Counted from the stretch's first letter, positions 1,435-64,000 are shown. The stretch is 64,000 bases of DNA from Candidatus Yanofskybacteria bacterium (GCA_016185525.1 JACPNK010000005.1:92473-156472); one strand, 5' to 3'. Notes: generated by a model not told the origin, from the sequence alone. Numbers and translations: made by a program.

Positions 1435-1490
1435 TTGACTAGGGTACTATAAATTTGTTATAATATAAGTACGGTATAGATCTTAAAAAA
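1435..1490 (+). promoter_or_regulatory. Sigma70-like promoter plus boxA-like motif
   Basis: TTGACT (1435), 18 nt spacer, TGnTATAAT (1459-1464); GATCTTAAAAAA at 1479-1490. Confidence 0.6.
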
Positions 1491-1529
1491 CAAGGTTTTT
1501 AGCCCAAACGGGCAGAAAGAGAGAAGGAA

Positions 1530-2282
1530 ATGTTGAAAAACTTTTTGAGAATCGCCGGTTTTTTGAGTCTGCTTTTCGGCGGCCAGTTCACGCTGACCGC
1601 CATGGCCCAAGGCGACCTGGGTCGAGTGGTCCAGGGAAACTTGGACATCATTTCCAGAAACCACATCCGAGGGGATGTGGCCAATCTGGAAGCCCAGATC
1701 CATAGCCTCATTTACCACGAGCGCTACGGGTATGGATATCTCGATGATGGTTATTTCTACGGGACCGACCAGTACGGTCGGGGTAACCGTGGAAGAGTTC
1801 ACATCAGCCCCATTGAAGTCGGGATTGGTGGGGCCATGATTGGTGGATCGGTCGATGGTTGGCGAGGTGCCGCTATCGGTGGAACTGCCGGCTACTTCGG
1901 GACCAAGGCTGTAAAGGCCGTTGTCCAACACAAACGCAACAAGCGAGAACAGAAGGAAGCCGAAGCCATGGCCGCCCAAGCGCAAGCGGAAGCTCAAGCC
2001 ATGCTCGAGAAAAAATTCTTCTGGAACGACACCGAGTCCGTGAATGCCGGGGTTTTTTATCAGGACAATAACGGTACCCAGTATGTCCGGGTGGGTCCTG
2101 GACAAAAAATCCTGCTGTTTATTCTGCCTGGCTCCAATGTTGGTGTTATGGCCGAGGGAGTAGTAACACCCAGTGGCCGGACCATCAACAAAGAGATCCC
2201 CTACGGCAAGGGGAAACAGTTCCTCCCAGCCAATGCTGGCTGGCGAATTTTCAACGTCCAGCTGGACAAGCTGGACTGGTAA
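1530..2282 (+). CDS. Secreted hypothetical protein with glycine-zipper segment
   Basis: Signal peptide ending AMA-Q; GIGGAMIGG..GAAIGGTAG; AAGGA SD; GC-richer than flanks. Confidence 0.75.
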   Translation: MLKNFLRIAGFLSLLFGGQFTLTAMAQGDLGRVVQGNLDIISRNHIRGDVANLEAQIHSLIYHERYGYGYLDDGYFYGTDQYGRGNRGRVHISPIEVGIGGAMIGGSVDGWRGAAIGGTAGYFGTKAVKAVVQHKRNKREQKEAEAMAAQAQAEAQAMLEKKFFWNDTESVNAGVFYQDNNGTQYVRVGPGQKILLFILPGSNVGVMAEGVVTPSGRTINKEIPYGKGKQFLPANAGWRIFNVQLDKLDW

Positions 2283-2297
2283 AGAAAGGATAAAAAA

Positions 2298-2669
2298 ATG
2301 AGAGCAAGTGGGCAAATCGTTATGGGTGGCAGAAGAATCGCCACTCAAAATTTTCATGTTCTTGGGCCGGGTGGTGGGACCTGGTGGGTGAAGTATTCTT
2401 GGTGGGTGATACCACTGGGAGTGGTGTTGTTGGTCCTACCGGCAGTCGGCTACTGGTCCGGGGCAAGGGTTTTTTCCTTCTCCGGTCAGACGACCACCTC
2501 TGCGCCGGCGGTAATGACACCACAACCGATTGTAGTAACACCGGTACCGGTTGTGATTCAATCACCACCACCGCCGGCACTAACAACTCCTTCAGCTCTG
2601 GGCGAAGCGGAAGAGGCTGGTGTAAAGCCTCCTCCTAAGCCCAAAAGCTTGTGGGAGTTAAACCCCTAG
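2298..2669 (+). CDS. Proline-rich single-pass membrane protein
   Basis: AAAGGA SD, one TM helix, P/T/V-rich tail; 15 nt downstream of the previous gene. Confidence 0.65.
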   Translation: MRASGQIVMGGRRIATQNFHVLGPGGGTWWVKYSWWVIPLGVVLLVLPAVGYWSGARVFSFSGQTTTSAPAVMTPQPIVVTPVPVVIQSPPPPALTTPSALGEAEEAGVKPPPKPKSLWELNP

Positions 2670-2697
2670 TGTATTTCTCTGGCCAAGAATTTCGGCC

Positions 2698-2727
2698 ACC
2701 CTGCACCATCCGGTACAGGGTTTTTTT
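2698..2727 (+). terminator. Intrinsic terminator
   Basis: ACCCTG..CAGGGT hairpin followed by a T run. Confidence 0.65.
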
Positions 2728-2755
2728 ATCCAGAAAAAGTTACTCCTGAACAAGA

Positions 2756-3016
2756 TTATCGGTAAATATCTTTGCGGTTTGCAACTCTGATTAACTGGAC
2801 TGTGTCGGGACTAAGAAGTTGAAAAATCACCCGGTAGTCACGGGTGATTCGGAAAGAGTAGAAACCAGACAAATCTGCGGAGAGCTGTTTAGTATGCAAA
2901 AGCGGATGAAAAATATTTTGTTCAAGCAAAGCTGTCTGGGTGTCAAGTTTGTTCTGGATTTTATCTGGCAAGTCCTTAGCTGACTTAAGAAATACCCTAG
3001 TAAAAACAACTCTCAT
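2756..3016 (-). CDS. RelE/ParE-family toxin
   Basis: 86 aa; F.K..K.L, HPLLHTKQL, YSFRITRDYRVIF. Confidence 0.85.
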   Translation of the reverse strand: MRVVFTRVFLKSAKDLPDKIQNKLDTQTALLEQNIFHPLLHTKQLSADLSGFYSFRITRDYRVIFQLLSPDTVQLIRVANRKDIYR

Positions 3017-3234
3017 TTAACTTTTTTGATAGCTTCCAGCAGAGAACCGCAACCATTGAAAGTATGAGTGGGTTTTTCCTTGGCTGCTCTTAAAATTTTA
3101 CGAACAAAGACAGGATTGTACTCTCCCTCTTCATCACGGCCAAGCATGCCAATCACTAGCGAACGCATTATGCCCATCTCTCTTTTAATGGTTGAAATCT
3201 CAGAATAAATTTTTTCGTTAGTAACTCTATTCAT
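3013..3234 (-). CDS. Putative antitoxin
   Basis: 73 aa gene overlapping the toxin start; TTGACT and TATAGT 6 nt before ATG (leaderless). Confidence 0.65.
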   Translation of the reverse strand: MNRVTNEKIYSEISTIKREMGIMRSLVIGMLGRDEEGEYNPVFVRKILRAAKEKPTHTFNGCGSLLEAIKKVK

Positions 3235-8471: not shown

Positions 8472-8540
8472 TTGACTCCATAATATTTTTAAATTACGCT
8501 TGCCATAATCAGGTCTTTAAAAAATTAAAGAAAAAAGGTG
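8472..8540 (+). promoter_or_regulatory. Promoter, boxA-like motif and SD for the prkA operon
   Basis: TTGACT-17-TACGCT; GGTCTTTAAAAA at 8512-8523; AAGGTG SD. Confidence 0.55.
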
Positions 8541-8544: not shown

Positions 8545-10614
8545 ATGTCTGAAAAAGTCATGACTGTTGATGACAACAAAAGCCTACTCTTTCATGTCAA
8601 AGAGGTACTGCAAGGCCGCAGAAAATTTGAAACAGTCTCCGAAGCCGTTCTTAGAATGGTTTTGTCAGAGGGAGTAGAGAAAAAAGTCCATGCCGGAAAA
8701 ACCATATATGATTTTATGTTTTTTCGTAAAGGCTCAAAACACATAGTCGGATGGTATGACGAAATAAATGACTTTGTACACTTTCTCAAAGACGCCGTTG
8801 AAGGCGGCCCTGCCAAAGAGCTGGCCTTTGTTTTTGTTGGAGAGCCTGGCAATGGCAAAACTTTTTTCATTGACTATCTTTGTGGCAGGTATAGGCAGTT
8901 TTTAGCAAGACCGGAAAATAGAAAATACACGTTTAAATTTATTGGCTTGGATAAAGTTCTCGGTTATGACAAAAAAGTTGCGGAGCTGCCGTCTCTTACC
9001 TTTGAAAATCCTATGATTTTAGCCATGAATCTTTTTGAAAACCAAGACCAAACAAAAGAGTTTTTAGCTCAACAGGGGTTTAGGGACACTCAAATTGAAG
9101 CATTTTACAAAAACCATCGTCCTTTGGGCGCCTCCTCGGAGTATTTGTGGTACGAACTGTTTGCTCATTATGACGGCGACCTTGTGGAAATGCTTAAACA
9201 TATTCAAGTCACTCCTGTACCCATGAGAGAAAGTTTGGGCATTACTACGGGAAAGTACGCGGCTAAAGACAAAATTACCGCTTCGGCCGCTGATCTCTTG
9301 GGAGAAGAATCTCTGCAGCTTATGCTGTTGTTGCCGATCGGGGACCCGAACCGATACGATCTGCAGATAGGTGCTTTAGCCAGGGTTGGCGACGGTGGGA
9401 TACATTTTGCTGACGAAATATTTAAGAATAAAACTGACTTCAACCATATTTATCTGCAGGTTGTTCAGAATAGAACCTTGGAACTGGGAGCATTTAAGTG
9501 GTGGCTGGATGTTTTAGTGCTTGCAACTTCCAACTCTGACGAATATCAGAAACTGGTAAGCATGAAAGAAGAATCACCGCTCAAAAGCAGATGTCGAATT
9601 TGTTATGTCGGTCATAATACTGACTATATACTTCAACAAGAACTGACAAAATATTCTATGGGCAGTCAAAAAAAGAAGACTATTTTGGGCGAAGACATGC
9701 ACGAGGACCCGAATTTAAACTTTGCTATTTCTGTTGGGGTGGTTTTTACCAGACTTCCACATTCAGAGAAGCTTACACCCATAGAAACATTGAAACTTGA
9801 AGCCGGTGAAACAGCCGGTGAAAAGGGCATAAAAACAATACTAGAAGTTAAGAAGACCTTAAACGCCAACCCCGATGTCACTAAAAGGTGGGGGCAGAGT
9901 GGATTGGGCCACCGTGATGAAGGCAAAGTTATACAAATTCTGGAAGCTATGCCTGAAAGTAACGAAGGTAAGTGCTTGTTTGCCAAAGATGTTTTTGAGG
10001 CATTTGAAAGAATCGTACTTGACTATGTGGAGGAAGCGGCAAAGCGTGAAAAGTATTTTGAAGACCTAAAAATAGCAAGACAGCTTTATCGTGAACAGGT
10101 GAGAACTTCCATTTTTAACGCTTACCGTGAAGATTCACAAGCCGTTCGTAAAGATGTTTTAGCTTATGTCAACATGATTATTGGAATGGATCAAGAAAAC
10201 TTGGGTCCGGATAAGATGTGGAAGTATCGTGATCCACAAACCGGAGAGTTGAAACCCCTTAAAATAGACACGAGTTTTATTGACAGCGTTGAAAACCGAA
10301 TGGGTCTTTCCAGCGATGAAAGAAAAGAATCTCACCGTAATACCGTACGCAAGATTTACGGTCAGAAAGTTTCCACAGATCCTAATTATGATTTTATGGA
10401 CAATCAGTTATTGGTTAAAGCAGTAACTGACGTAAGACTGGAATCGGATGTTGCCGGGGCAGGCAGTCTGGCTGGCGCTTTGGCCAATAGAACCAATGAA
10501 GAAAACCTAAAAATTTACGACAGGACGGTTAGAGCTATGCTGAAACTTGGCTATTGCCTAACCTGCGCTCAGAAGACGATAGAATACTTTATTACAAAAG
10601 AAGACGAAAGTTAG
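8545..10614 (+). CDS. prkA: PrkA/YeaG-family AAA+ protein (serine kinase-like)
   Basis: Walker A GEPGNGKT, Walker B FADE, C-terminal LGYC..CA; upstream of yeaH and spoVR. Confidence 0.88.
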   Translation: MSEKVMTVDDNKSLLFHVKEVLQGRRKFETVSEAVLRMVLSEGVEKKVHAGKTIYDFMFFRKGSKHIVGWYDEINDFVHFLKDAVEGGPAKELAFVFVGEPGNGKTFFIDYLCGRYRQFLARPENRKYTFKFIGLDKVLGYDKKVAELPSLTFENPMILAMNLFENQDQTKEFLAQQGFRDTQIEAFYKNHRPLGASSEYLWYELFAHYDGDLVEMLKHIQVTPVPMRESLGITTGKYAAKDKITASAADLLGEESLQLMLLLPIGDPNRYDLQIGALARVGDGGIHFADEIFKNKTDFNHIYLQVVQNRTLELGAFKWWLDVLVLATSNSDEYQKLVSMKEESPLKSRCRICYVGHNTDYILQQELTKYSMGSQKKKTILGEDMHEDPNLNFAISVGVVFTRLPHSEKLTPIETLKLEAGETAGEKGIKTILEVKKTLNANPDVTKRWGQSGLGHRDEGKVIQILEAMPESNEGKCLFAKDVFEAFERIVLDYVEEAAKREKYFEDLKIARQLYREQVRTSIFNAYREDSQAVRKDVLAYVNMIIGMDQENLGPDKMWKYRDPQTGELKPLKIDTSFIDSVENRMGLSSDERKESHRNTVRKIYGQKVSTDPNYDFMDNQLLVKAVTDVRLESDVAGAGSLAGALANRTNEENLKIYDRTVRAMLKLGYCLTCAQKTIEYFITKEDES

Positions 10615-10630
10615 TTAAAGGAGTCTTCCA

Positions 10631-11803
10631 ATGCCCAACGAATCCTTTGAAGAACTTTTGAAAAGAGACGCGCAGAGAGAAAAAGACGGATTCAAGAAGA
10701 AAATAAGGATAAGAAAAATATTGTCCGGGCCGGACAGGGTAATCGCAATTCCTTATGTCGTTGAGGAAAAACTCATTCATGGAGATTTTGAGCCGACCGG
10801 CGAACACGGGATAGACCAAGCCGGACACGGAGAAGGAGAGGTCGGAGATATTATCAGCGAAATACCTCTTTCCGAAAGCGGTGAAGACGGCGACGGCGAT
10901 GAAGAGATTGAAGATGGAGAACCCGAAGCCGGCGAAGGTGAAGGTGAACACGGCATAGAAACGGGAGCTTACCAGCTGGGCAAAGAGCTTTCGGAAGAGT
11001 TAAAGCTTCCTGACTTGAAAGATAAAGGCAAAAAAGTGCCGACTGACGAGTATGTTTATGATCTGACGGACAGACACAAAGGATCCGGCCAATTTTTAGA
11101 CAAAAAAGCAACACTGGTAAGCGTTGTAAAGAGCAATGTTGCTCTGGGCCGCATTGACAAAGACAACATTGATACGACAAAACTCATTGTTGGTCCGCAG
11201 GATAAAATTTATCGTGTTCTTTCCAAAGAAAGGGTCTGGAAGTCTCAAGCGATTGTGTTTTTCTTAAGAGATTATTCTGGTTCTATGCAGGGCGACCCGA
11301 CCAAAGCAATATTAAGCCAACACCTAATGATATATTCATGGCTTTTATTTCAGTATAAGCATCTGGTAATACCAAGGTTTTTTGTTCATGATGTTGAAGC
11401 TGAAGAAGTTTCAGTAGAAGCCTACTTTACAAAGGCTACCAACGGCGGCACTTTTATACCCTCCGTTTATCAAGAGGTTAACAGGATTGTTGAAAAGGAA
11501 AATCTTGCCAGAGATTATAACATTTACGTCTTTCAGGGCACTGACGGCGACGACGGAGACGACGGAGAAAAAGCAGTCCCGGAAATAGAAAAAATTCTAA
11601 GCTATGTCAACCGTATGGGTGTTAGTGTTTTGAGGAACCCACGCCATCTTGAACTTAAACAAGAAAGCCTTTTTGAGCTATATATAAAAGAAGGCAGCTT
11701 TACAGACAGAAAAGATGTTTTCAGAATGCATATTATGTCTGACAGCAACGTAACCGATGAAAAAAATAAACAAGCAGTCAAAGCTTTGGTTGCTGAAGAC
11801 TAG
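10631..11803 (+). CDS. YeaH/YhbH (DUF444) VWA-like protein
   Basis: G/E-rich linker (AGEGEGEH), EELKLPDL, RDYSGSM, GGT, YVFQGTDGD. Confidence 0.88.
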   Translation: MPNESFEELLKRDAQREKDGFKKKIRIRKILSGPDRVIAIPYVVEEKLIHGDFEPTGEHGIDQAGHGEGEVGDIISEIPLSESGEDGDGDEEIEDGEPEAGEGEGEHGIETGAYQLGKELSEELKLPDLKDKGKKVPTDEYVYDLTDRHKGSGQFLDKKATLVSVVKSNVALGRIDKDNIDTTKLIVGPQDKIYRVLSKERVWKSQAIVFFLRDYSGSMQGDPTKAILSQHLMIYSWLLFQYKHLVIPRFFVHDVEAEEVSVEAYFTKATNGGTFIPSVYQEVNRIVEKENLARDYNIYVFQGTDGDDGDDGEKAVPEIEKILSYVNRMGVSVLRNPRHLELKQESLFELYIKEGSFTDRKDVFRMHIMSDSNVTDEKNKQAVKALVAED

Positions 11804-11808
11804 AGTCA

Positions 11809-11834: not shown

Positions 11835-11910
11835 AGTCCTTGTATTTATCTAATAATCCTGTAAATTTTAAGAAAGAACCTTAAAAATAAGGAAAAACGA
11901 GGCAAGAACT

Positions 11911-13617
11911 ATGGAACTGTTAGGACAAGAGACCAAGAAAATTATGGAGGAGTGCAAGACTAGAGCAAGAGCCGAGGGCTTAAGCTTTGAGGGAGAGACC
12001 TTAGAGTACATCGCCACCAATCAAGATTTCCTGGCGCTTATGCCAAAAGCGATGATTCCCACGCTTTATGATTTTTGGGTTGATGACGTGGAGGTTATCA
12101 AAAATAAGTGGGTTTACAAATTATATCCCGACAACCCTTATGAGACCGTAGTCAACACCAGACCTCCATTGTCATTTTACAACGACAACAACGCTGATTG
12201 GTTTAATATAATGATTTTCTACCACGTTTTGTTTCACATAGACTACTACCAGAACAATGTTTTTTTCAGAAACACATGGAATCGGGATTTTTGCGGTGAA
12301 GCGCTGGCCGATAAGCGCCTTATAAACAGGATCCGGGAAGAAATGGGAACCGAAAAGAGGTGGGTTGACTACGTAATTGAATTTGCCAGAGGCGCGGACA
12401 ACTTGGTCGGTTACTATCAGGAACTTAGGGAAGAAGACAGGAACCAGACAAGAGAAACTGCAGGCTCCTTTTCTAAAAAAGTTGACTTTTACTTCGGCGA
12501 ATTCCTGAAACAACGCCACGAAGAAAAGAACATAACGCTCAAGTTTTATTACGACGAACTTGAACGGCTCAATGTCTGCCATAAGCAGTTTGGCCAGAAA
12601 GTAGGAGACGACATTTTCTTCAACGACACGGCTTTCAGAAGCAAGTTTCCGGAATTTGACGGTGTCTTTAAGAAGCGTGAAGAGAAAAAGAAGCCAAAGA
12701 CAAAAGACATTCTTCAATATCTTGCGGACCGCTCCGAGTTTGTAAACAAAGAAGGCAACGGGTGGATGAAAGAAGTCCTTGAAGTAGTAAGAAGAACGTC
12801 GCTTTTTTTTCAGCCTCACTTCAGAACCCATAACAGCAACGAAGGCTGGGCCAGTTTGTGGCACGAAAGGTTGTTTATAGCCGACCCCCGGATTCGCTCT
12901 CATGAGATTGACTACAGCATAGTCAACTCTAGAGTTGTTGTTGACCCGGAAATAATAGGACTTAACCCTTATATCGGTTTCAAGCGTCTCTATGAATTTA
13001 TTGAAGAACTCGCGGCAAAAGGCAAGCTCTCCTACCAATACCAGCTGATAAAAGACGCTGAAGCTAGAAAACACTTTGACCAAAAACTGGGAGAAGAAAC
13101 GGGCAAAAAAGCCCTGTTTGAAGCCAGAAAAAATTTTGACGACTTTATGCTTGTCAATTTTCTTTCCGACGACGACTTTCAGGACTTCGTTGATAAATAC
13201 AATCTTTTTGTCGCCGGCCTTCATCTAAACTTAGAAAGATTGTCGCTTCAAGTTTATATCAAGTCGAGAAGCGGAAAAGAGTATCGGAAGATGCTCAACG
13301 ACAGCTTATACCACCCGCCCCACATCATAATCAGTGAAGATAAAGCCAGGGAAGGAGAGCTGTACCTTGACCATTCCTTTGAGGGCCGGTCTCTGGTTAC
13401 GGCCTATATTCCGGCAGTTTTAATCGGTCTGTCTTATTTGGCCGGTAATACGGTTAAGCTTGAAACAACAGAATTTGATTCTGGTCCGATAAGACTAGAC
13501 AGTCCACTTTTGGAAGCAGGATATACGCCAGAGTACAAAAAACTTCGTGTGCTTTACACTTGCAAAGGTAAAACAGTGGAAAAAACTTTGATTTCCGAAG
13601 AAGAGGGGGGAGAGTAA
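11911..13617 (+). CDS. SpoVR-family protein
   Basis: PYETVVN, HV.FH.DY, NEGWASLWH, LNPY motifs. Confidence 0.9.
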   Translation: MELLGQETKKIMEECKTRARAEGLSFEGETLEYIATNQDFLALMPKAMIPTLYDFWVDDVEVIKNKWVYKLYPDNPYETVVNTRPPLSFYNDNNADWFNIMIFYHVLFHIDYYQNNVFFRNTWNRDFCGEALADKRLINRIREEMGTEKRWVDYVIEFARGADNLVGYYQELREEDRNQTRETAGSFSKKVDFYFGEFLKQRHEEKNITLKFYYDELERLNVCHKQFGQKVGDDIFFNDTAFRSKFPEFDGVFKKREEKKKPKTKDILQYLADRSEFVNKEGNGWMKEVLEVVRRTSLFFQPHFRTHNSNEGWASLWHERLFIADPRIRSHEIDYSIVNSRVVVDPEIIGLNPYIGFKRLYEFIEELAAKGKLSYQYQLIKDAEARKHFDQKLGEETGKKALFEARKNFDDFMLVNFLSDDDFQDFVDKYNLFVAGLHLNLERLSLQVYIKSRSGKEYRKMLNDSLYHPPHIIISEDKAREGELYLDHSFEGRSLVTAYIPAVLIGLSYLAGNTVKLETTEFDSGPIRLDSPLLEAGYTPEYKKLRVLYTCKGKTVEKTLISEEEGGE

Positions 13618-13619
13618 CC

Positions 13620-15818
13620 GTGGATGAAACCAAAAAAGCGCTGGAGACGTTAAGAACCGATATTGAGGATAAAGAGAAAAGAAAAGTTTTGAGGTTTGAT
13701 GAATTTTTGGACGTTGCAAAAAGAGAGCCCGAGAGGTCTCTGCGGGATATTTTTCAGCTTTTTCACGACATGGTCAAAAGTTGTGTCGGCAAAGGAGAAG
13801 ACGAATATCCTGACGACCCCGAAAGCATCGGTTTCATTAAATACGACTGTTCAAAAATTTTTGTCAGGGATTCTGACAACCCCTTTTTTGCCGACAGGCT
13901 TTTTGCCAACAGATTTGTAAGGCAGGTGGAGTCGCTTAGGCAGGGCTCCAGGCAGAATCGGATATATGTCTACGAAGGGCCTCACGGATCCGGCAAAAGC
14001 ACATTTTTGAACAACCTTCTTCAGGCATTTGAAGAATACACAGCCACAGAGGAAGGGCAGAGCTTTGAGATTTTTTGGGATATTGATATTGGAGGGGGGG
14101 AAAAGGTTAATGTCTCTTGTCCAAGCCATGACTATCCGATGCTGGTTATCCCCAAAAGTTATCGCGCTGCTTTCTTGGACAAACTTCTGTCGGAAAAGAT
14201 GTCTGAATTTAAGTACAAGCTCTCTCACGAAAAAGAGTATGAGTGGCTATTTAAAAGAGAGGTCTGCACAATATGCAAGTCTCTTTTTTGGGCTTTGTTT
14301 GAAAAACTTGGCTCTCTTGACAAAGTTTTCGACATGATTAAAGTTCGTAATTGCAAATTTGATCGTCGGCTAGGCGAAGGCATTAGCGTTTTTAACCCCG
14401 GCGACAGCCCCATCAAAGAGGCTTACTTAACTGTTGCTCGGACCCAAAGAAAGCTCGATACCATATTCGGCGCCAATCTCGTAAAATACGTGTTTTCGCC
14501 CCTTGCCAAAACCAATAATGGCATATATGTCCTTATGGACATCAAGTCTTTCAACAAAGACAGACTTTTGGAACTTCACAATGTCATTTCCGAAGGCGTT
14601 CATAAGGTCAACGGCATGGTAGAAGAAAGAATAAGTTCGCTTTTTTTAGCTCTCATGAACCCGGAAGACAAAGAAAGCATAAAGGAAGAGAAAGCCGAAT
14701 CATTCCAAGGAAGAATCCAGTATAACAAAGTTTCATACGTTTTAGACGTGCCTACCGAGGTTAAAACTTACTATAGTGTCTTCGGTGAACAAATCGATCT
14801 GCAGTTTCTTCCGAGGGTTCTTAAAAACTTCGCAAGAGTAATAATTTCTTCCAGAATGAATGCCGAATGCGCAGCGCTTAAAGAGTGGATTCTGGACATG
14901 AAAAAATACAACCGTTACTGCGACGAAGCGGGACTTCTGCTAAGGATGGCGATAAATGGCGGCACCATTCCACAATGGCTATCTGAAGAAGACAAGAAAA
15001 AAATGACGGCTGTCATCAGGCGGAAACTGATTGCGACTGGAGAATTAGAAGGAGTAAAGGGTTTTTCCGGAAGAGAGTCTATCGATCTTCTTGGTGAATT
15101 TTTAAGGCGTTATGGCGGAAAACCCAAGTTGATAAACATGGACAACGTTTGTGACTTCTTCAAGCACAAGGTTGATAGAGACACGAGAAACGAAAATATA
15201 CCCAAAAACTTTATCGGCTCGCTTGTGAACTGGTATGACTACTTAGTGTTAAACGAAATAAAAGAGTCTCTTTATTTTTATAATAAGGAACAGATTCAAA
15301 AAGATATTCTAAATTATATCTACGCCGTAAACTACGATGTTGGGAGCAAAATAAAATGCGAGTGGACTCAGCAGGAATTAGAGGTTTCAACTGAATTTTT
15401 TAAAATGTTTGGTTCTTATTTTACCGGCATAGTTCTGGGTGATCACGGCGCTTTAGAGTTTGCAAAAGAAACTCAAAAAAAATTCAGAAAAGTTATTGCC
15501 CAATGCCAAAATAAAAAAATAACCGGCGAGAAAATATCTGAAACGGAGTTATACCAAGAACTCTTTACGGCTTACACCAAGAACTTGAAAGAAAAACTGT
15601 CCGAGCCGTTCCTTAAAAGCGACAACTTTAAAGAAGCGGTAAAATGTTTTGGAACCGAAAAATTCAAAACCTTTGACACTCGGCTGAAAGAACATGTTGC
15701 TCACATGACCAAGAACTTAGAAGAAAAGTTTGGATATTCGGAACAAGGAGCCAAAGAAATTTGTCTTTACGCGATTGAACAAAAGCTGGTTGACAAATTT
15801 CCTTCAAAACATTCTTAG
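13620..15818 (+). CDS. Second PrkA-like AAA+ protein
   Basis: Walker A GPHGSGKST, CPSHD.P, G.SGRES, FGYSEQGAKE; Walker B appears degenerate (VLMDIK). Confidence 0.82.
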   Translation: MDETKKALETLRTDIEDKEKRKVLRFDEFLDVAKREPERSLRDIFQLFHDMVKSCVGKGEDEYPDDPESIGFIKYDCSKIFVRDSDNPFFADRLFANRFVRQVESLRQGSRQNRIYVYEGPHGSGKSTFLNNLLQAFEEYTATEEGQSFEIFWDIDIGGGEKVNVSCPSHDYPMLVIPKSYRAAFLDKLLSEKMSEFKYKLSHEKEYEWLFKREVCTICKSLFWALFEKLGSLDKVFDMIKVRNCKFDRRLGEGISVFNPGDSPIKEAYLTVARTQRKLDTIFGANLVKYVFSPLAKTNNGIYVLMDIKSFNKDRLLELHNVISEGVHKVNGMVEERISSLFLALMNPEDKESIKEEKAESFQGRIQYNKVSYVLDVPTEVKTYYSVFGEQIDLQFLPRVLKNFARVIISSRMNAECAALKEWILDMKKYNRYCDEAGLLLRMAINGGTIPQWLSEEDKKKMTAVIRRKLIATGELEGVKGFSGRESIDLLGEFLRRYGGKPKLINMDNVCDFFKHKVDRDTRNENIPKNFIGSLVNWYDYLVLNEIKESLYFYNKEQIQKDILNYIYAVNYDVGSKIKCEWTQQELEVSTEFFKMFGSYFTGIVLGDHGALEFAKETQKKFRKVIAQCQNKKITGEKISETELYQELFTAYTKNLKEKLSEPFLKSDNFKEAVKCFGTEKFKTFDTRLKEHVAHMTKNLEEKFGYSEQGAKEICLYAIEQKLVDKFPSKHS

Positions 15819-20192: not shown

Positions 20193-20422
20193 GACCGTTT
20201 TCTGTAAAAACCCAAACCCTTCCAAAACTTATAGAGAGGCGTACTGACTTGTCCGTCCGAAGCTTTAGCGAAGGAGGATGACAATTTCCAAATTTTCTTT
20301 GGCGGAGTTCGGATTACTGAAATTCTAGCGAATTTCAGTCTTGGCGGCAAATTCTTTGAAAAACAAAACCGCCAGAGGCCTTTCGACATAGCGGTTTGAG
20401 CAGTCAGTCTGCTTAGTCCTTT

Positions 20423-20887
20423 TCAGGAACGAGTCGGTTTCTCCGAAAGGAGAGTACCGATCCATTCCATGTTGCCTTTGTGGTTCTCGAACCAGGGCCA
20501 TCGAGCTCTTGCGGCATCACGATTGAAAGGGTCGCCGATAATAAGCTCGACGGTCTCGTTGTCCTCGATTGCGATCTTGACCTTGTCGAAATCCGCAACC
20601 TCGATAGTACAGACTTCTTCACGACCAAACTCGTTCTCAGCTGGTGCATAGATACGCACCTTAACCTCGAAGGGATTGTAGTCATTTTCCCCACGAATAT
20701 CGACGTCGAGAGAATGAGTGGCTTGTTGAGGATTCTGTCCTCTGACGAAGTGCTCTGGACACATGCACTCATCGATCTTGAAGAAAAACATTGTCCCTTG
20801 AAGATCCTCAATCATGCAATTCTCGCCACGATGAGCATCAAAATACTTTCCTTTAACCAACGAACGAAGTCCTGTATAGACATGCAT
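20423..20887 (-). CDS. Hypothetical protein
   Basis: Strong AAGGAGGT SD; GC-richer; own terminator at about 20366-20398. Confidence 0.7.
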   Translation of the reverse strand: MHVYTGLRSLVKGKYFDAHRGENCMIEDLQGTMFFFKIDECMCPEHFVRGQNPQQATHSLDVDIRGENDYNPFEVKVRIYAPAENEFGREEVCTIEVADFDKVKIAIEDNETVELIIGDPFNRDAARARWPWFENHKGNMEWIGTLLSEKPTRS

Positions 20888-21069
20888 TTACTACCTCCTT
20901 TTTTGACAAAAACCGACTGAAACGAAAGTTCAGCCCACATCATACCATATCTTATCGTTGTTGTAAATAGCAACAACAAACAAGATAACAAAAAAGCCCA
21001 TATTCAGGCTATTTCTTACTCTTAAACTCTTATTAAAATTTTTCTTTTCTGCTTCTATAAAATATGGTT

Positions 21070-25288: not shown

Positions 25289-25315
25289 AAAAAAACCGCT
25301 TCTTGCGAAGCGGTA
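25289..25315 (-). terminator. Terminator of the PBP gene
   Basis: ACCGCTTC..GAAGCGGT hairpin with T run on the minus strand. Confidence 0.65.
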
Positions 25316-25338
25316 CCTGTTTGTTTAGATACCGGAAT

Positions 25339-27282: not shown

Positions 27283-27450
27283 GTAGCTTGCCTCCTTTCT
27301 TCAGATTTTAAGGTTCTTTGTTTTGAATAAAAATACCACTTTTGTGAAGTAGTTCAAGCGCTTAGCGTTTTTGGCGGTAAGTTTACTTTTTTAAAATCTT
27401 CTTCTATACTTTGGGCAAATAGGTCTTATGTTCTTTGAAAAGGGGGCGAT

Positions 27451-28569: not shown

Positions 28570-28580
28570 GTTTTTGTTAC

Positions 28581-44598: not shown

Positions 44599-44661
44599 AG
44601 TGCTATGCTCTATCAGGCTTACTTAAATGAGCCTTTGTACTTTTTAAAACAGGAGAAAAAA

Positions 44662-45258
44662 GTGAGAAAATCGGGGATAGTTTTTTTGGTGATCTTAGCG
44701 GTTGCTGCAACTTTAACGAATTCTGTCTTTGCGCAGAACGACGATGAAAGGCGCGGACTGTTTTCCGTTCAACTGGGCGGAACTTCAAATATTGGGTCAT
44801 CTGAAGCCAATAAGTTCAACATCGGCGGAAGTTTTGCTTACAGGTTGTTTGAATCGCGCAACTTTTATATTGAGCCGGGTCTGTCGCTGAATTGGCCGAG
44901 CAAAGAGTACCTTTTTGTTGAGGAGTATCCTTATCCTGTGGGGAGGATAAGCTCAAAGACTGTTATTGTGGATTTCAACGCTTCACAATCTTTTGTTGGA
45001 AAAAGGCAGAAGCGTTGCGTTCCTTATCTCACCGGGGGCGTCGGTTTTATAAGAAACTGGTCAACTTTGACAGACGGATATTATGTTTATGACTGGGGTT
45101 CGGAGACCAGTTTTACCAAAAACTTAGGCGGTGGATTCAGAATTTTTTTAGGGGAAGATCAGAACATTTTTGTTGGCGGAGAGTATAAAAATTACTGGGC
45201 CGGCGATATCGGTGGCTTTCGTGTTTTTTCCGGTAAGATCGGGTTTAGGTTTGAGTAA
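44662..45258 (+). CDS. Outer-membrane beta-barrel-like protein (8-stranded OmpA/OmpW type)
   Basis: GTG start after AGGAG; signal peptide ending VFA-Q; alternating strands, PYLTGGVG, NLGGGFR, C-terminal KIGFRF. Confidence 0.75.
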   Translation: MRKSGIVFLVILAVAATLTNSVFAQNDDERRGLFSVQLGGTSNIGSSEANKFNIGGSFAYRLFESRNFYIEPGLSLNWPSKEYLFVEEYPYPVGRISSKTVIVDFNASQSFVGKRQKRCVPYLTGGVGFIRNWSTLTDGYYVYDWGSETSFTKNLGGGFRIFLGEDQNIFVGGEYKNYWAGDIGGFRVFSGKIGFRFE

Positions 45259-45260
45259 TA

Positions 45261-45293
45261 AAAATCCCACACATAATTTTGTGTGGGATTTAA
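45261..45293. terminator. Bidirectional terminator
   Basis: AAATCCCACACA..TGTGTGGGATTT between convergent genes. Confidence 0.75.
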
Positions 45294-45298
45294 CTTTT

Positions 45299-46291
45299 TT
45301 ATTTCTTTGAAGAAAAATAATTTTCTAAAACTTTTAGTCTGGGTTTGGTCAACTGTAGTTTTCTGGCTATATCACTTCTGTTTGGAAAAGTTGTAACCAA
45401 CTTTTCCAGCAAGGAAACTTCTTTTTCTAAGACCAACCACTCATTTTTACTTTTTCCGCCGTTCATGAATTTTTCACGCTGATCGTCGTAAACTTCAGCC
45501 AGCAGTAAGGCCGATTCAAGCCATGTTTTTTTAAGCCACGGTTTGTCATAGCTGTTTTCGTATGATTTTTCAATCCATTTTAGGGCGGTACTTTTGTTAA
45601 AAACATCGTCATCAGCAAAATAATAAAGCTCACTGTAAGTGTAAGACTTCCATCTGACAAAAAGCCTTTTTAGGCTCAACGGATCTGTTTTGCTGGCAAG
45701 TCCGTAGCGGGTAGCTCCCAGAAAAAAATAAGCGGAGTGAAAATCGGGATTTTCCTTTAAAATTTTTTTCAATATTTTTATGCCGTCGGCCGTGTCTTTG
45801 TCTGCCTGCGACAGTCCGGATAAGTTGCCTTCAAACCTATAAATGAATTTGGCTTGGCTGAAAAGCAAAATTGCTTGTGCCAACAAGTGTTTGTGGTTAT
45901 CTTGACTGCTTGCCAGTTTAAAACCTTGACCGACAATCTCGTGATATTTTTTGGCTCTGCCTGCCAATTCCATGTTGTCAGAAATATTTTTTTGCTTATC
46001 TAACCCCACGCCAAGTTCGTGGCCCAGTAAAACCCACTCTATTGATGCCCAAAGATCGTAAAAATAAGGGTCATCCGGATATTTACGCAACAGTTCCCAG
46101 GCGTCCTTTAAGTCTTGAGCATTGCTTTCTTTTGATTCAAAATTGTTGTAAAAGCTGTCTACGACCCTATTAAGCTGTTCGTACCTTTGTTCTTCTTGAT
46201 TTTGTTCCTGCGGAGTTGGCCAGGCTATTGCTGTGGCCGGAGGACTTAACATGACAAAAGCAAGGAAAGCAAGTATTTTTTTAAGTACCAT
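45299..46291 (-). CDS. Secreted all-helical TPR-like protein
   Basis: Signal peptide (AIA-W); YPDDP and ENPDFHSAYFFLG repeat-like motifs. Confidence 0.72.
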   Translation of the reverse strand: MVLKKILAFLAFVMLSPPATAIAWPTPQEQNQEEQRYEQLNRVVDSFYNNFESKESNAQDLKDAWELLRKYPDDPYFYDLWASIEWVLLGHELGVGLDKQKNISDNMELAGRAKKYHEIVGQGFKLASSQDNHKHLLAQAILLFSQAKFIYRFEGNLSGLSQADKDTADGIKILKKILKENPDFHSAYFFLGATRYGLASKTDPLSLKRLFVRWKSYTYSELYYFADDDVFNKSTALKWIEKSYENSYDKPWLKKTWLESALLLAEVYDDQREKFMNGGKSKNEWLVLEKEVSLLEKLVTTFPNRSDIARKLQLTKPRLKVLENYFSSKK

Positions 46292-46452
46292 CTTTGCCTC
46301 TGACTGACTTTATTTTCAAGGTAGCTTGCCTATTTTACAATCAAAAACAAGTTTTTGCAAGGGTCCACCCCTTGTCAGGGTCATCCTGACAAGGGGTGAC
46401 AAATTATGCATTGGCTTGCTGTTGATTGGGCGGTATATTATAATTAAAAATT

Positions 46453-49141: not shown

Positions 49142-50071
49142 GTGGAAAATAAAGAAGTATATGACTTAATTATCATTGGCGGTTCAGCGGCGGCAACTTC
49201 TGCCGGTATTTATGCCGCGCGGAGAGGCTTAAATTTTAAGATTATAACTAAAGAATTCGGCGGTGAGGTGGCAACTTCAGGTGAAATCGGCAATTGGCCG
49301 GGAGTCAATAAGACAGATGGCATCACTTTGGCTGGGCAGTTTAAGGAGCATTTAAAATATTACGGAATTGAGCCGGAAGAGGGGGTTGAGGTGGAAAAAG
49401 TGATAATAGAGCCAGATGGCAATTTTTTAATTAAATCAAACAATGGGAATTATGCCGCTAAAACAATCATTGTAACTACCGGAGTCCATCCGCGCGAACT
49501 GGGCGTGACCGGGGAAAAAGAGTTTCGCAACAAAGGAGTCAGTTACTGTACAGTATGTGACGGCCCCCTTTTTGCCGGCAAAGTTGTGGCTACAATCGGC
49601 GGGGGCAATTCGGCTCTGGAGTCTGCCTTGATGTTGACTGACGTCGCTTCAAAAGTTTATGTTATTAACAAAAATATGCAGTTCAAGGGCGACCAGATAT
49701 TGATTGAAAACTTGAACCAAAAGAAAAATGTAGAGATAATTTATAACGCTAAAACTGCTCAAATAGAGGGCAATGAATTTGTGACTGGGTTAAAATACAA
49801 AACTGAGGACAGTCCTCAGGAGCTAGAGATCAAGGTTGATGGTATTTTTATTCACATTGGCATGGTGCCAAACAGCGGTTTGGCCCCTGATGGGGTAAAA
49901 AAAGACAAGTTTGGTCAGATCGGGGTCAATGCTAATTGTGAGACCAGTATTCAAGGACTTTATGCTGCCGGTGATGTTACTGATACACCATACAAACAAA
50001 TTGTCATTGCTGCCGGCATGGGCGCGACAGCGCTTTTGTCGGCTGTTAATTACTTAAATAGAATGAAATGA
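49142..50071 (+). CDS. trxB: Thioredoxin reductase
   Basis: GVSYCTVCDG, GGGNSA, AAGDVT; GTG 7 nt after TATAAT. Confidence 0.92.
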   Translation: MENKEVYDLIIIGGSAAATSAGIYAARRGLNFKIITKEFGGEVATSGEIGNWPGVNKTDGITLAGQFKEHLKYYGIEPEEGVEVEKVIIEPDGNFLIKSNNGNYAAKTIIVTTGVHPRELGVTGEKEFRNKGVSYCTVCDGPLFAGKVVATIGGGNSALESALMLTDVASKVYVINKNMQFKGDQILIENLNQKKNVEIIYNAKTAQIEGNEFVTGLKYKTEDSPQELEIKVDGIFIHIGMVPNSGLAPDGVKKDKFGQIGVNANCETSIQGLYAAGDVTDTPYKQIVIAAGMGATALLSAVNYLNRMK

Positions 50072-50883: not shown

Positions 50884-51144
50884 ATGAAGAAAACATTTAA
50901 TTCTCAGTACTCAATTTTTCCCATTACTATCGAGCCTATGGGAGAAGGCGGTTATTTTGCTTTTACCGAAACCTTGCAAGGCGCTCATGCCGAAGGGGAA
51001 ACGCTGGGTGAGGCGATAGACAATATTAAAGATGTTATTGAAAAACATTTGGAAGTAAGAAAGGAGCACGGGGAAAATATCGGAAACTTTGAGATTGGCG
51101 TAGAACCCAGGATTTCAATTCCTTTGCCTTTGCTTTCCAAATGA
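50884..51144 (+). CDS. hicB: HicB-family antitoxin
   Basis: EGGY.A....L.G...EGET..EA..N..D.I; promoter TTGACT-17-TAAAAT 7 nt before ATG. Confidence 0.88.
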   Translation: MKKTFNSQYSIFPITIEPMGEGGYFAFTETLQGAHAEGETLGEAIDNIKDVIEKHLEVRKEHGENIGNFEIGVEPRISIPLPLLSK

Positions 51145-58887: not shown

Positions 58888-59571
58888 ATGCTAAAAAACG
58901 AAACACAGTTGCCAACTTATGAAGATATGATTAAGGCCGGTATGCACTTGGGGCGCAAAAAATCTATTTTTAATCCCAAGATGAAGTCCAATGTCTATCT
59001 GATGAGGGACGGCATTCATATTATAGATTTGATAAAAACAAAACAGGGGATGACTTCAGTGGTGGATTTTTTGAGAAAATCTTTGGAAGATAAAAAACTA
59101 GTTTTATTTGTTGGTATTTCCAAACAGTCATCTGATTTGGTCAAAGACCTGGCGGAAAGCCTCGGTATGCCCTATGCGATCAATCGTTGGCTTGGCGGCA
59201 CTTTGACAAATTTTAAGACTGTAATTTCGCGTCTCCACTATCTTGAATCTTTGGAGACTGATTTTGCTTCGGGGGCATTTGAAAAGTACACAAAAAAAGA
59301 AAGACTGATGAAAGAAAAAGAAATGGCAAAGTTGAAAGAAAAATTTGATGGTTTGAGGAAGTTGAACCGTGTTCCAGACATTTTGTTTGTTTCTTCGGTT
59401 AAAGAGAACGAACTCCCAATTAGAGAAGCCAAAAAAATGAAAGTCAAAATTGTCGGTTTGATTAATACCGAAAGCGATCCTAGCCGAATTGATTTCCCGA
59501 TTCCAGCCAATGACAACGCACGCAAATCCCTGGAATTGATTATTAAAGCTATCAAAGATTCTCTTTTGTAA
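58888..59571 (+). CDS. rpsB: 30S ribosomal protein S2
   Basis: AGMHLG, RWLGGTLTN, PANDN; ATG 7 nt after TATACT. Confidence 0.96.
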   Translation: MLKNETQLPTYEDMIKAGMHLGRKKSIFNPKMKSNVYLMRDGIHIIDLIKTKQGMTSVVDFLRKSLEDKKLVLFVGISKQSSDLVKDLAESLGMPYAINRWLGGTLTNFKTVISRLHYLESLETDFASGAFEKYTKKERLMKEKEMAKLKEKFDGLRKLNRVPDILFVSSVKENELPIREAKKMKVKIVGLINTESDPSRIDFPIPANDNARKSLELIIKAIKDSLL

Positions 59572-60838: not shown

Positions 60839-60840
60839 CA

Positions 60841-61713: not shown

Positions 61714-61872
61714 ATGAGTCAAGATAATTTAATAAAAATGAAGTGCGGAAAGTGTAAGCGTTTCAATTACCACACTTTCAAGAATAAAAAGAAAGTGGAG
61801 CGGACCATCACTTTAAAGAAGTTTTGTAAGTGGTGCCGCGCGCACACCGAACATAAAGAAACCAAAAAATAA
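61714..61872 (+). CDS. rpmG: 50S ribosomal protein L33
   Basis: C..C...NY.T.KN, LKKFC..C..HT.HKE. Confidence 0.95.
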   Translation: MSQDNLIKMKCGKCKRFNYHTFKNKKKVERTITLKKFCKWCRAHTEHKETKK

Positions 61873-61886
61873 TTTTGGTTTCTTTT

Positions 61887-61957
61887 GGGGATGTCGTTCA
61901 ATGGCAGGACTCTTCTCTCCAAAAGAAGGTATTCCCGTTCAAGTCGGGACATCCCCG
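61887..61957 (+). tRNA. tRNA-Trp(CCA)
   Basis: GGGGATG acceptor, CTTCT-CTCCAAA-AGAAG, G73. Confidence 0.92.
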
Positions 61958-61989
61958 CAGGAAAGGGCTGGACAATTCCCTCAACTCCC

Positions 61990-62042
61990 GCCATGCACCG
62001 CGTGGGGTGCATGGTTGCCCTGAATCCTACGTGGTTCAGGGC
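61990..62042. repeat. Inverted doublet of related 26 nt hairpins (REPIN/BIME-like)
   Basis: 61990-62015 resembles the reverse complement of 62017-62042. Confidence 0.55.
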
Positions 62043-62054
62043 GTCACACCCTAC

Positions 62055-62091
62055 AAATCAAAAAGATGGCCAGTTGCCATCTTTTTGATTT
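62055..62091 (+). terminator. Terminator after the tRNA operon
   Basis: AAATCAAAAAGATGGC..GCCATCTTTTTGATTT. Confidence 0.7.
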
Positions 62092-62140
62092 ATGATAGTA
62101 TCATCCCAAATTTGATCTTTGAAAATTAAAGGAGAAAAAA

Positions 62141-64000
62141 ATGGGAAGCCAAAAGGGAGCAAAAATTGGTTTTGCTTCTCGCGTTGACTATGGCTCGTCA
62201 GGTTTCCGCAGTGGACTTGTCAGGGCAGGGTTTGAGATTTTTGTTAAGGAGCAAGTTAACTTTATTGTAATGCCGGGCGGGTTGGTGGCAAAAAAGGCGT
62301 TAACTGAAAAAATGAATGCTTGGATTAAAGAGCGGTTAAGTATTAGAAAGTCTGGCGGGTCTAAAAAAAACAATGGAAGAACTAAATTAGGAAAAAAGAA
62401 AAACGGCAACGGCCTTTCTGCTTCGGAAAAGTTGAGAATAAAAAAAGGAGAACTGCGGGCGGAATTCTTGTCCGGGGTTGCCAAAGAACTCGCCGAACTT
62501 ATTCCGGTAACGACTGTCACGGATCCCGAAGATGCGACCAAGAAAAAAAGTCTGGATTTGTTTATCACAACCAGTCCGGCTTTTGACGGAGAAATCGGAG
62601 AAGATGTGGCCCAATTGTTGGCCGAACTGCGCCCAGATATAAAAGTCTGGAATGTCGGCGGTGATCGTTTTCCGGTTCTTTACGTGGATAAGCTTATCTG
62701 GGCGCTAGCTCCATCCAAAGCAACCTGGATGCGAGGCGACTACTTCAGCACTCCCGTAGAAAGAGTTATTAAGGACAAAATAAAACAAACTTCGCAAAGT
62801 TCACCTGACCGTTTTGTTGTCGGTTGTTTTGGTTCAAGCATCAACAAAACCAAAGGTGAGTTAAAATATGCTTACGTTTCCGTTCCGGCACTTTCACGCT
62901 TAGAAGAAACGCGGGTCAACGAAAACCAGATTGGCGTTTGTGTGCTTGAGTACCCTGCCGATAATAGCGATTCGCTTTGGCGCAATTACAGCTTAAAGGA
63001 CGTGGTTAGTCGGGAGTTAGACTTTATTGTTCCACCGACAGAAACCAGCAGTCTTCAGAAAAAAATGATTGACATCATGAAGACCAGGGGGTGGGCTACT
63101 CCGGGAATATTGAGAAATGCTCTTAAAGATATTCCTTTGGATAAGATTAAGGCTGGAATGGCGGAATTAATGAAGTTAAAAACCTTCAGGCGTATGGGGG
63201 AAAACTGGCCTGGTATTGTTTACAAAGAAAGTGGCAAGAAGTATTACTTTGATCTTGACTTCATCCAACACCGTCTAAAATATGCTTTGCCGAACGGACC
63301 ATTCAAAGAAGATCGTATCGTGTCTTTTTCTTGTCTTCACACCGGTTCCATAGAAACTGACTACGATTTTTTTAGAAACGAACTACCCAAAATTATTCTA
63401 AAACATAACGTAGATATTCTTGTTAATGTCGGCGATCTCATAGAGGGTATGAAGCATTTTTTGGACCGAAAAGGTGAGATTATTGCCGGAATGAATAATT
63501 ATACAATCCAAGAAGAAGCTGCTGCTAATCTGGTGGGTGCTGTCATGGAAGAAGTGTTCAACATTCGTTTTGCCAAGGCTTTAGCGGGAGAAACGGGAGA
63601 AGTAACTCCAGACATAGTTCATTCCATCGTTAAACAGAGTTTGATTGATTTGAAAAACAAACTAGGCAACCATGACCTTTGGCAGATAGATGACGGACAT
63701 ACTCCTTTGCGAGTTTTTGAACTCACTATAGTAAATTATTTAGCCGACAAAATTACAGAAACACTTGCTAAAAAAAAGTTGTCTTGTTCGGACCTACGGG
63801 GAATAGTTGAAAGTAAAATTATCCGTAGTGATCTTTTTGAACTGCCATCGGGCTTGAAAGTTTCCGTTCAGCATCCGCATATGGCTCGGGCCAAAACCAC
63901 TTCTCTGCGTCCGCAGGAAATGCTGGAGTTTGCCAAAAGGCAAGGGTGCCAAGTTGCTATCGGCGGAAATTTCCACGTGAGCGAAAATATTGAAGAGTGG
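62141..64000 (+). CDS. Large calcineurin-like metallophosphoesterase protein, 3' truncated (absent from ORF track)
   Basis: ATG after AAGGAG; MGSQKGAKIGFASRVDYG..; later SCLHTGS, VGDLIEG, GNHD, QHPH, GNFHV motifs. Confidence 0.78.
   Translation, partial: MGSQKGAKIGFASRVDYGSSGFRSGLVRAGFEIFVKEQVNFIVMPGGLVAKKALTEKMNAWIKERLSIRKSGGSKKNNGRTKLGKKKNGNGLSASEKLRIKKGELRAEFLSGVAKELAELIPVTTVTDPEDATKKKSLDLFITTSPAFDGEIGEDVAQLLAELRPDIKVWNVGGDRFPVLYVDKLIWALAPSKATWMRGDYFSTPVERVIKDKIKQTSQSSPDRFVVGCFGSSINKTKGELKYAYVSVPALSRLEETRVNENQIGVCVLEYPADNSDSLWRNYSLKDVVSRELDFIVPPTETSSLQKKMIDIMKTRGWATPGILRNALKDIPLDKIKAGMAELMKLKTFRRMGENWPGIVYKESGKKYYFDLDFIQHRLKYALPNGPFKEDRIVSFSCLHTGSIETDYDFFRNELPKIILKHNVDILVNVGDLIEGMKHFLDRKGEIIAGMNNYTIQEEAAANLVGAVMEEVFNIRFAKALAGETGEVTPDIVHSIVKQSLIDLKNKLGNHDLWQIDDGHTPLRVFELTIVNYLADKITETLAKKKLSCSDLRGIVESKIIRSDLFELPSGLKVSVQHPHMARAKTTSLRPQEMLEFAKRQGCQVAIGGNFHVSENIEEW

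Follow-up and report, generated by a model that had tools for sequence, protein, structure and literature searches.

Why does one bacterial chromosome place a boxA-like word and a Shine-Dalgarno (SD) motif in front of a dispersed set of accessory genes, while most core genes start without either? The question is raised by a 64,000-nt stretch of DNA from a Candidatus Yanofskybacteria bacterium (GCA_016185525.1 JACPNK010000005.1:92473-156472; "the window", numbered from its first letter), which is part of contig C6 of an 812-kb genome in 8 contigs. The PrkA, vWA and barrel proteins of this genome are closest to Ca. Yanofskybacteria entries, and therefore, judged by sequence similarity, the source organism is a bacterium of the candidate phyla radiation (CPR, Patescibacteria). 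The element under study is a short leader motif (consensus G-W-W-C-T-T-T-R-A-A-A-A) which lies between promoter and start codon. We tentatively favour, with somewhat less than even confidence, the explanation that the genes carrying it, about a tenth of all genes, are translated by the ribosomes of a diderm host after a predicted transfer of DNA or mRNA.

A sequence-only reading of the window had cited nine motif sites, all of which are present where it placed them. The pattern is matched exactly at 8512, 11876, 27430 and 62114 and with one mismatch at 1479, 27316-27305 and 46324-46313; these seven main sites score 9.2-14.5 bits on a profile that was seeded with the motif of that reading and trained solely on mRNA leaders. 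The two variants described as weaker are real but low-scoring (8.9 bits at 44637, 7.2 bits near 20915). Inside the window alone, the one-mismatch pattern is not enriched (38 matches versus 38.06 in shuffles), and thus the signal is one of position, not of count. Genome-wide, the exact pattern occurs 39 times; 24 matches are intergenic, 22 have a start codon 3-35 nt downstream, and 15 also have an SD. The averages for 300 permuted patterns are 5.9, 1.1, 0.46 and 0.07, and none of them attains the real counts. Outside the window the numbers are 35, 20, 18 and 12, and in antisense orientation the pattern is near a start 4 times and accompanied by an SD once.

All start codons of the 774 genes, which were called by a self-trained coding model, are predictions. 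For a held-out test, the profile was built with the respective contig left out, starts were taken from the coding signal alone, and a threshold of at least 8 bits was applied. The motif was found before 37 of 114 SD-led genes with at least 40 nt of upstream space versus 16 of 340 non-SD genes (odds ratio 9.7, p 2e-13), as the sequence-only reading had proposed, and before just 2 of 29 operon-internal SD genes. Therefore, the box belongs to transcript 5' ends. The reverse-complement control was fairly high (22 of the 114 SD-led genes) because the core of the motif is semi-palindromic. After refinement of the starts using SD and box, a procedure that is partly circular, 100 of the 774 genes carry a box at 6.5 bits, 80 at 8 bits and 67 at 9 bits; the loosest set contains probable false positives such as dnaB, alaS, ileS and prfA. 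An unseeded k-mer search over all 770 leaders gave SD and promoter words, with the box not among them, and the box core TTTAAAA surfaced once SD leaders were contrasted with non-SD leaders. A chance origin of the motif is ruled out by the permutation, hold-out and cross-genome tests.

The boxed genes share a common layout of promoter, boxA, SD, open reading frame (ORF) and, often, an intrinsic terminator, which we call a cassette (67-100 of the 774 genes). For 34 of 67 boxes, the 60 nt upstream contain a promoter match of at least 9/12, compared with 3.7 in shuffled sequences. Upstream of the box, the -35 element begins at a distance of 34-44 nt and the -10 hexamer mostly ends at 5-12 nt; between the end of the box and the start codon there are 8-27 nt, and the SD spacing peaks at 6-8 nt; most leaders contain no boxB-like hairpin. 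The motif itself is not a sigma -35 or -10 element, given the separate sigma70 promoter upstream and the start codon downstream. Genes without an SD follow another grammar: their -10 hexamers peak 6 nt before the start (39 of 340 genes), versus 29-41 nt in SD genes. Within the window, the -10 hexamers (TANNNT) claimed 6-7 nt before the starts of trxB, rpsB, hicB, the antitoxin gene at 3234 and the LAGLIDADG gene are indeed there, and polA, holA and pilM lack an SD; the antitoxin gene additionally has a GGAG overlapping its -10 (free energy, dG, -5.9).

The two grammars coincide with gene conservation. Comparison with the complete chromosome of a relative from another family of the same order (G019) yielded 315 conserved genes, taken as core, 405 without a match and 54 intermediate ones. 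A strong SD precedes 11 of the 315 core genes versus 105 of the 405 no-match genes, and box plus SD precede 3 versus 54 (p 3e-11); overall, about 130-230 genes have an SD, and these are mostly accessory. The transcript ends differ as well. For genes with at least 60 free nt downstream, terminators follow 40 of 57 box+SD genes (antisense control 7) and 31 of 64 SD-only genes (control 12), whereas 17 of 104 SD-less accessory genes (control 16) and 17 of 117 SD-less core genes (control 15) are at background. This contrast recurs in the relatives G003 (8/9 versus 12/76) and G171 (7/15 versus 24/108), is weak in G017 (4/7 versus 23/69) and is absent in G019 (1/5 versus 31/154).

The resemblance of the motif to boxA (type GNUCUUURANAA, 12-13 nt) also stood up. 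The boxA words of E. coli, UGCUCUUUAACA, and B. subtilis, AUGAUCUUUGAAA, as given in the accessible text of PMC13753749, score 13.7 and 13.5 bits, near the profile maximum. In 8 of 9 CPR 16S leaders, the best match reaches at least 8.5 bits, with G019 failing at 4.2 bits; in several of them, the word directly follows a hairpin. The 16S leader of this genome scores 9.5 bits (shuffle fraction 0.07) and its 23S leader 9.7 bits, and the 16S-leader site of the relative G015 is identical to the prkA box, GGTCTTTAAAAA. Just 1 of 43 tRNA genes is preceded by a boxA. The 16S gene (G000:C5:15261-20112), which is split by introns that contain LAGLIDADG genes and a match to a group II intron domain, and the 23S gene (G000:C2 near 13238) are unlinked, and each has its own promoter and boxA-like site. 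The element is probably a NusB-S10 site, a predicted binding that would apply whether the cassettes are read by a host or by the cell itself.

NusB is indeed encoded, as are S10, NusG and a NusA-like protein. NusB is present in 31 of 31 genomes of the comparison set and in 158 of 161 genomes of the phylum, so that correlating its presence with the motif is not informative. Rho (PF07497) was found in 0 of the 31 genomes by a search that was positive in 9 of 14 controls, and SuhB (PF00459) was not found in this genome. The leaders of nusB, rpsJ, nusG and nusA score below 6.5 bits; the start of nusB was miscalled in this scoring, and no box was evident upstream on re-inspection. The proposal of a separate regulon using Nus antitermination thus fares unevenly: the two-tier grammar and the identity with boxA stand, but classical anti-Rho antitermination in the own cell is excluded, as far as these genomes go, because Rho and SuhB were not found. 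The most speculative suggestion of the sequence-only reading, that the cassettes act in a host cell, received indirect support from cassette SDs that are retained in some anti-SD-less genomes and from cargo whose diderm partner machines were not found.

Which ribosomes read the SDs? The 3' end of the 16S rRNA, GGATCACCTCCTTTCT, contains an anti-SD. The gene rpsU (bS21, 87 aa; G000:C1:23620-23880 = L041:3716-3976; family match 26.5 bits, below the cut-off of 28.95) lacks a boxA and has a very strong SD, which is among the strongest core SDs (dG -11.6, extended -13.4). A strong rpsU SD is conserved in 20 of 29 relatives. Among genomes in which the end of the 16S was visible, 10 of 11 possessing an anti-SD have this SD, versus 1 of 8 lacking one (p 0.001, the kin not being independent). 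The SD of rpsU has apparently been lost along with the 16S anti-SD in several lineages (G007, family f2 and other orders). Loss of the anti-SD in some Parcubacteria has been published, according to the accessible part of PMC9297842. In Flavobacterium johnsoniae, as far as the accessible text of PMC9976891 goes, the strong SD of rpsU serves bS21 autoregulation, and ribosomes lacking bS21 raise the translation of strong-SD reporters. By analogy, the rpsU pattern is the signature of bS21 autoregulation, and occlusion of the anti-SD by bS21, bS18 and bS6 would be predicted here. The prfB frameshift site CTT TGA (L044:2670-2700) is preceded by GGAG, and an internal SD may thus still act in elongation.

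Cassette SDs occur even where a genome has no anti-SD. In the anti-SD-less G171, of which 373 of about 700 kb were examined, boxes of at least 8 bits precede 12 of 41 SD-led genes versus 2 of 152 other genes; the boxed SD genes include thyA, and two of them lie on the contig carrying the 16S end. The cassette SDs of G171 are no weaker than those analysed here (mean dG -9.7 versus -7.1). In the likewise anti-SD-less G018, 9 of the 10 sites were fetched and an SD-led ORF follows 8 of these, although the selecting pattern included an SD-like word. Clear persistence without an anti-SD was seen in only three of eight genomes, namely G171 (6 versus 1 in the control), G076 (5 versus 0) and G018 (10 versus 2); the anti-SD-less family f2 was sampled as 20 short stretches picked around pattern matches. 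Two genomes are ambiguous: G129 has two different 16S 3' ends, of which a single one contains an anti-SD, and is probably a binning mixture, and G183, which combines an anti-SD-less 16S end with an SD-bearing rpsU, may likewise be a mixture.

Across the CPR, selection maintains the box, as judged from sequence comparisons of homologous leaders. For prkA, 51 of 56 loci could be scored, five having been dropped for scant upstream DNA or a partial match. A box of at least 9 bits precedes 8 of the 11 labelled CPR homologues, the leaders of which are otherwise unrelated, and none of the 37 non-CPR homologues; the remainder comprises one further non-CPR locus without a start and two unlabelled loci, one of them boxed. 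For spoVR, the box was found at 6 of 9 CPR loci, missing where spoVR directly follows yeaH, and at none of 30 non-CPR loci. In the prkA-yeaH-spoVR-prkA cluster (8545-15818), most CPR copies of spoVR, unlike the non-CPR ones, have gained an intergenic gap with a box. The box+SD+start pattern, for which alternative starts were counted twice, has 198 versus 49 control matches in 30 relatives and 617 versus 434 in the 161 genomes of the phylum. Since 12 of these 161 genomes have at least 10 matches and no control does, the pattern is widespread but patchy. Five non-CPR genomes (22.4 Mb) gave 69 matches versus 56 for permuted motifs, that is, about 3 per Mb versus about 25 here.

The products encoded by the cassettes are diverse, and 47 of the 92 proteins outside the window match no Pfam family at 1e-5. 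The others include TonB_C, YkuD, HtrA, M48 and M50 peptidase, MoxR-vWA, thyA, purA, guaB, IscA and beta-oxidation proteins; PBP1A and HtrA have SD-less core paralogues elsewhere in the genome. The predicted barrel protein in the window starts most likely at GTG 44662, not at ATG 44605. It matches OMP_b-brl clusters in the Atlas at 0.97 and has homologues at 73-93% identity, plus one at 40% with PF13505; a single-sequence fold reached a predicted local distance difference test (pLDDT) score of 33 and was not used as evidence. Several cargo proteins are without their usual partners: MotA_ExbB was found in 0 of the 31 genomes though TonB is part of the cargo, and neither Omp85/BamA nor an electron-transfer flavoprotein was found in this genome, although an acyl-CoA dehydrogenase is encoded. 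Dependence on partners that were not found thus applies to the barrel, TonB and the acyl-CoA dehydrogenase and not to most of the cargo; a similar Fe-S argument was dropped, as cysteine desulfurase is present. No outer-membrane or TonB Pfam family was found (E<=1e-6) in a scan of accessory proteins, 89 of them SD-only and 139 SD-less, that left out 74 further non-core proteins and the greater part of the 315 core ones. For the TonB and vWA cassette proteins, the nearest non-CPR relatives with a name are from Acidobacteriota, with few matches named and no tree. All of 11 genomes encode a TraG/VirB4-type ATPase.

Four independent lines of evidence lead away from the cell's own machinery, and the idea of reading by a host is preferred because it covers all four: SDs in genomes without an anti-SD to read them, boxA without Rho, terminators confined to cassettes, and diderm proteins without partners. 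It is plausible enough to be stated, if not enough to be expected, that one chromosome carries two orthogonal grammars, an SD-less and largely terminator-less one for itself and a host grammar for cassettes delivered as nucleic acid in the manner of a phage. The parasite's ribosomes would mostly ignore SDs, with rpsU carrying a Bacteroidota-type autoregulatory SD that is lost with the anti-SD. If DNA is delivered, boxA would load host NusB-S10 and shield the foreign transcripts from host Rho; if RNA is delivered, boxA would load the parasite's own NusB-S10, silencing or tagging the mRNA. The products might then remodel the host envelope and raise the supply of nucleotides and cell-wall precursors, and a type IV secretion system lacking a relaxase is a candidate delivery route. 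The accessible texts of PMC11665869 and PMC12102498 treat the role of this system in CPR and host exploitation as open questions. If the idea is right, the cassette set names the type of host (here possibly Acidobacteriota) and supplies a substrate for the type IV secretion system of CPR, and a simple signature singles out, in many uncultured genomes, the genes likeliest to act on a host.

Several observations weigh against host reading. The genome has its own anti-SD, and its own Nus factors and boxA-like rRNA leaders mean that the boxes could be read by its own machinery. Five anti-SD-less genomes are near control (G007 7 versus 4, G009 2 versus 2, G156 1 versus 1, G185 1 versus 3, G183 2 versus 3). 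Diderm machinery is clearly required by no more than three or four cargo genes; many enzymes (thyA, purA, guaB, murAB) could serve the parasite itself, and guaA, the partner of the cassette gene guaB, is SD-less. An N-terminal hydrophobic stretch was found in 26 of 84 cassette proteins versus 50 of 226 SD-less accessory proteins, and a second secreted protein resembling an outer-membrane barrel (L049:18809-19645, minus strand) has a strong SD with no clear box. Most CPR have no relaxase, according to the accessible text of PMC12102498, and the host of one Ca. Yanofskybacteria lineage is an archaeon, Methanothrix, according to that of PMC9600506; in four control archaea, neither NusB nor Rho was found. 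We keep our confidence below even because the transfer is a predicted one, the cell has its own Nus factors, the cargo is mostly neutral and the host of one Yanofskybacteria lineage is an archaeon.

The strongest alternative, which we consider possible though rather unlikely, is a regulon of the own cell with two locks: NusB-S10 on the boxA would block translation, in the way described for suhB of E. coli, and reading of the SD would be confined to ribosomes without bS21. An imbalance in ribosome supply, or a particular stage of the life cycle, would turn on the accessory genes, and any product required in the host would reach it in the form of protein. The near-universal NusB and the boxes before 16S and 23S are in line with this, as is the short distance from box to start, since in suhB the boxA lies 6 nt from the SD and repression of translation is independent of Rho (accessible text of PMC5725501); the conserved rpsU SD, as in F. 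johnsoniae, fits too. However, cassette SDs in genomes without an anti-SD would remain unexplained, as would TonB and barrel genes lacking ExbB or BamA as partners, SuhB was not found, and the cassette SDs (mean -7.1) are much weaker than that of rpsU (about -11.6). Autoregulation of the suhB type is missing because the Nus-factor genes carry no box. If this alternative is correct, the cassettes constitute the largest boxA regulon that we found described, in a Rho-less cell, and tied to specialised ribosomes.

It is improbable that the cassettes were acquired recently, whether from other CPR with an anti-SD, from hosts or from phages, and carry signals that have not yet decayed. The cargo is patchy (thyA is present in 6 of 31 genomes at 34-52% identity), box counts differ widely across the phylum, and in G171 the cassette genes have a third-position GC content (GC3) of 0.55 versus 0.49 for its other genes (n=12). 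However, the codon usage of the cassette genes here equals that of the core, the boxes of prkA and spoVR were found in CPR and not in non-CPR homologues, the five non-CPR genomes barely exceed their permuted control, and traffic among CPR would still require a function for boxA. A phage source in particular is not supported: at the 80 viral loci that were retrieved, out of at least 120 matches, 8 of 411 neighbouring SD genes were boxed, equal to the control (8).

Finally, it is very improbable that the motif is a DNA operator of a transcription factor or an A/U-rich bS1 translation enhancer that merely resembles boxA: its core is semi-palindromic, it lies just downstream of the -10, and a four-domain S1 is encoded, but a palindromic operator is disfavoured because the columns are asymmetric (G at position 1 in 58, C at position 4 in 45 and A, not the mirror G, at position 11 in all of 67 boxes) and the spacing to the -10 is not fixed (about 3 to 20 nt), and furthermore permuting the 5' half with the A-rich half kept reduces 18 matches to a mean of 3.1, and the same word occurs in rRNA leaders.

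Each of the known systems closest to the cassettes shares some of their features. As in the mRNA boxA of suhB, the element lies a few nucleotides upstream of the SD in the leader and belongs to the same consensus family. Gammaproteobacterial genomes, as far as the accessible text of PMC5725501 reports, have 0-7 such sites, mostly for Nus-factor autoregulation, coupled to Rho and in need of SuhB, whereas 67-100 genes are involved here, no Nus-factor gene is among them, and Rho and SuhB were not found. Like the rrn leader boxA of the Nus antitermination complex, which scores 13.5-13.7 bits on the mRNA-leader profile, the element lies at the transcript 5' end; unlike it, it heads short mRNAs which are translated, often contain a single gene and stop at intrinsic terminators, mostly without a boxB-like hairpin. 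SD-blind translation in Bacteroidota (accessible text of PMC9976891) resembles the present case in the SD-less core despite a 16S anti-SD and in the very strong rpsU SD, but F. johnsoniae has one obvious SD gene, compared with about 130-230 here, and the bS21 of the present genome is longer (87 aa). No report of boxA in CPR mRNA leaders or of a genome-scale boxA+SD class was found in a literature search that did not extend to subscription papers and supplements, of which those to PMC5725501 and PMC9297842 might contain relevant site lists or anti-SD lineages; a term search of PMC12641261, PMC10783764 and PMC13000453 gave nothing on such a class either. In phages, auxiliary metabolic and host-takeover genes are likewise carried by a parasite under strong host-style signals, and the cargo is similar (thyA, purA, guaB, prkA). 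Unlike these genes, the cassettes lie dispersed on a cellular chromosome, and the boxA grammar was not seen around the 80 viral loci.

Table 1. Cassettes and contrasting genes in the window, with promoter start sites predicted from sequence.
Position	Strand	Feature	Basis
1435..1464	+	sigma70-like promoter TTGACT-18-TATAAT of the 1530 unit	sequence
1479..1490	+	boxA-like GATCTTAAAAAA, 9.2 bits, in a long leader (start about 40 nt further downstream)	
1530..2669	+	two SD-led ORFs: 250-aa secreted glycine-zipper-like protein; 123-aa protein	
2698..2727	+	hairpin and U-tract, intrinsic-terminator-like, end of the 1530 unit	read from sequence
8512..8523	+	boxA-like GGTCTTTAAAAA, 13.5 bits, downstream of TTGACT at 8472	
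8545..11803	+	prkA (PF06798/PF08298) and yeaH (DUF444); yeaH operon-internal, SD without box	
11876..11887	+	boxA-like GAACCTTAAAAA, 13.1 bits, within the 107-nt gap before spoVR	
11911..15818	+	spoVR and second prkA, each SD-led	
20359..20915	-	cassette: weak box 20915-20903 (7.2 bits), strong SD, 154-aa ORF 20887-20423, terminator about 20398-20359	
25295..27316	-	cassette: box 27316-27305, SD, second PBP1A 27282-25339, terminator 25314-25295	
27430..28573	+	cassette: box GTTCTTTGAAAA 27430-27441 (14.5 bits), SD GGGGG	
27451..28569	+	ORF of the 27430 cassette: FAD oxidoreductase (DAO family); terminator-like 28551-28573	
44637..45258	+	cassette: box 44637 (8.9 bits), AGGAG, GTG 44662, signal peptide, predicted outer-membrane beta-barrel	
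45260..45300		hairpin between convergent barrel and tetratricopeptide-repeat (TPR) genes, likely two-way terminator	read from sequence
45299..46324	-	cassette: box 46324-46313 (11.4 bits), SD, secreted TPR-like protein 46291-45299	
62114..64000	+	cassette: box TGATCTTTGAAAA (13.5 bits, = B. subtilis consensus), AGGAG	
from 62141	+	ORF of the 62114 cassette: 701 aa, runs past the window end	
49142..50071	+	contrast: trxB, TATAAT 6 nt before start, no SD	
58888..59571	+	contrast: rpsB, -10 lies 7 nt before start, no SD	
50884..51144	+	contrast: hicB, -10 lies 7 nt before start, no SD	
22008..22442	-	contrast: LAGLIDADG gene, -10 lies 6 nt before start, no SD	
3013..3234	-	contrast: DUF2683-like antitoxin, TATAGT 6 nt before start	

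The features of the window are collected in Table 1. The label "phosphoesterase" for the gene at 62141 was not borne out, as the part within the window has no Pfam or NCBIfam match. Elsewhere in the genome, about 10 cassette genes are neighbours (L075:9278-18527 and L076:2197-5476), most with their own box and terminator; this run holds two vWA-like paralogues, purA, a 3-hydroxyacyl-CoA dehydrogenase and an enoyl-CoA hydratase/acyl-CoA dehydrogenase fusion. In three relatives (G027, G010 and G030; L287, L288 and L301), different genes have a common upstream block that ends in gcaa(t/a)tcc immediately before boxA and is possibly a mobile promoter-boxA module. Within the window, the free-standing LAGLIDADG gene lies upstream of a nucleotidyltransferase-like gene, and an HNH-like ORF (60811-61482), read from the sequence, lies among tRNA-Thr/Tyr genes.

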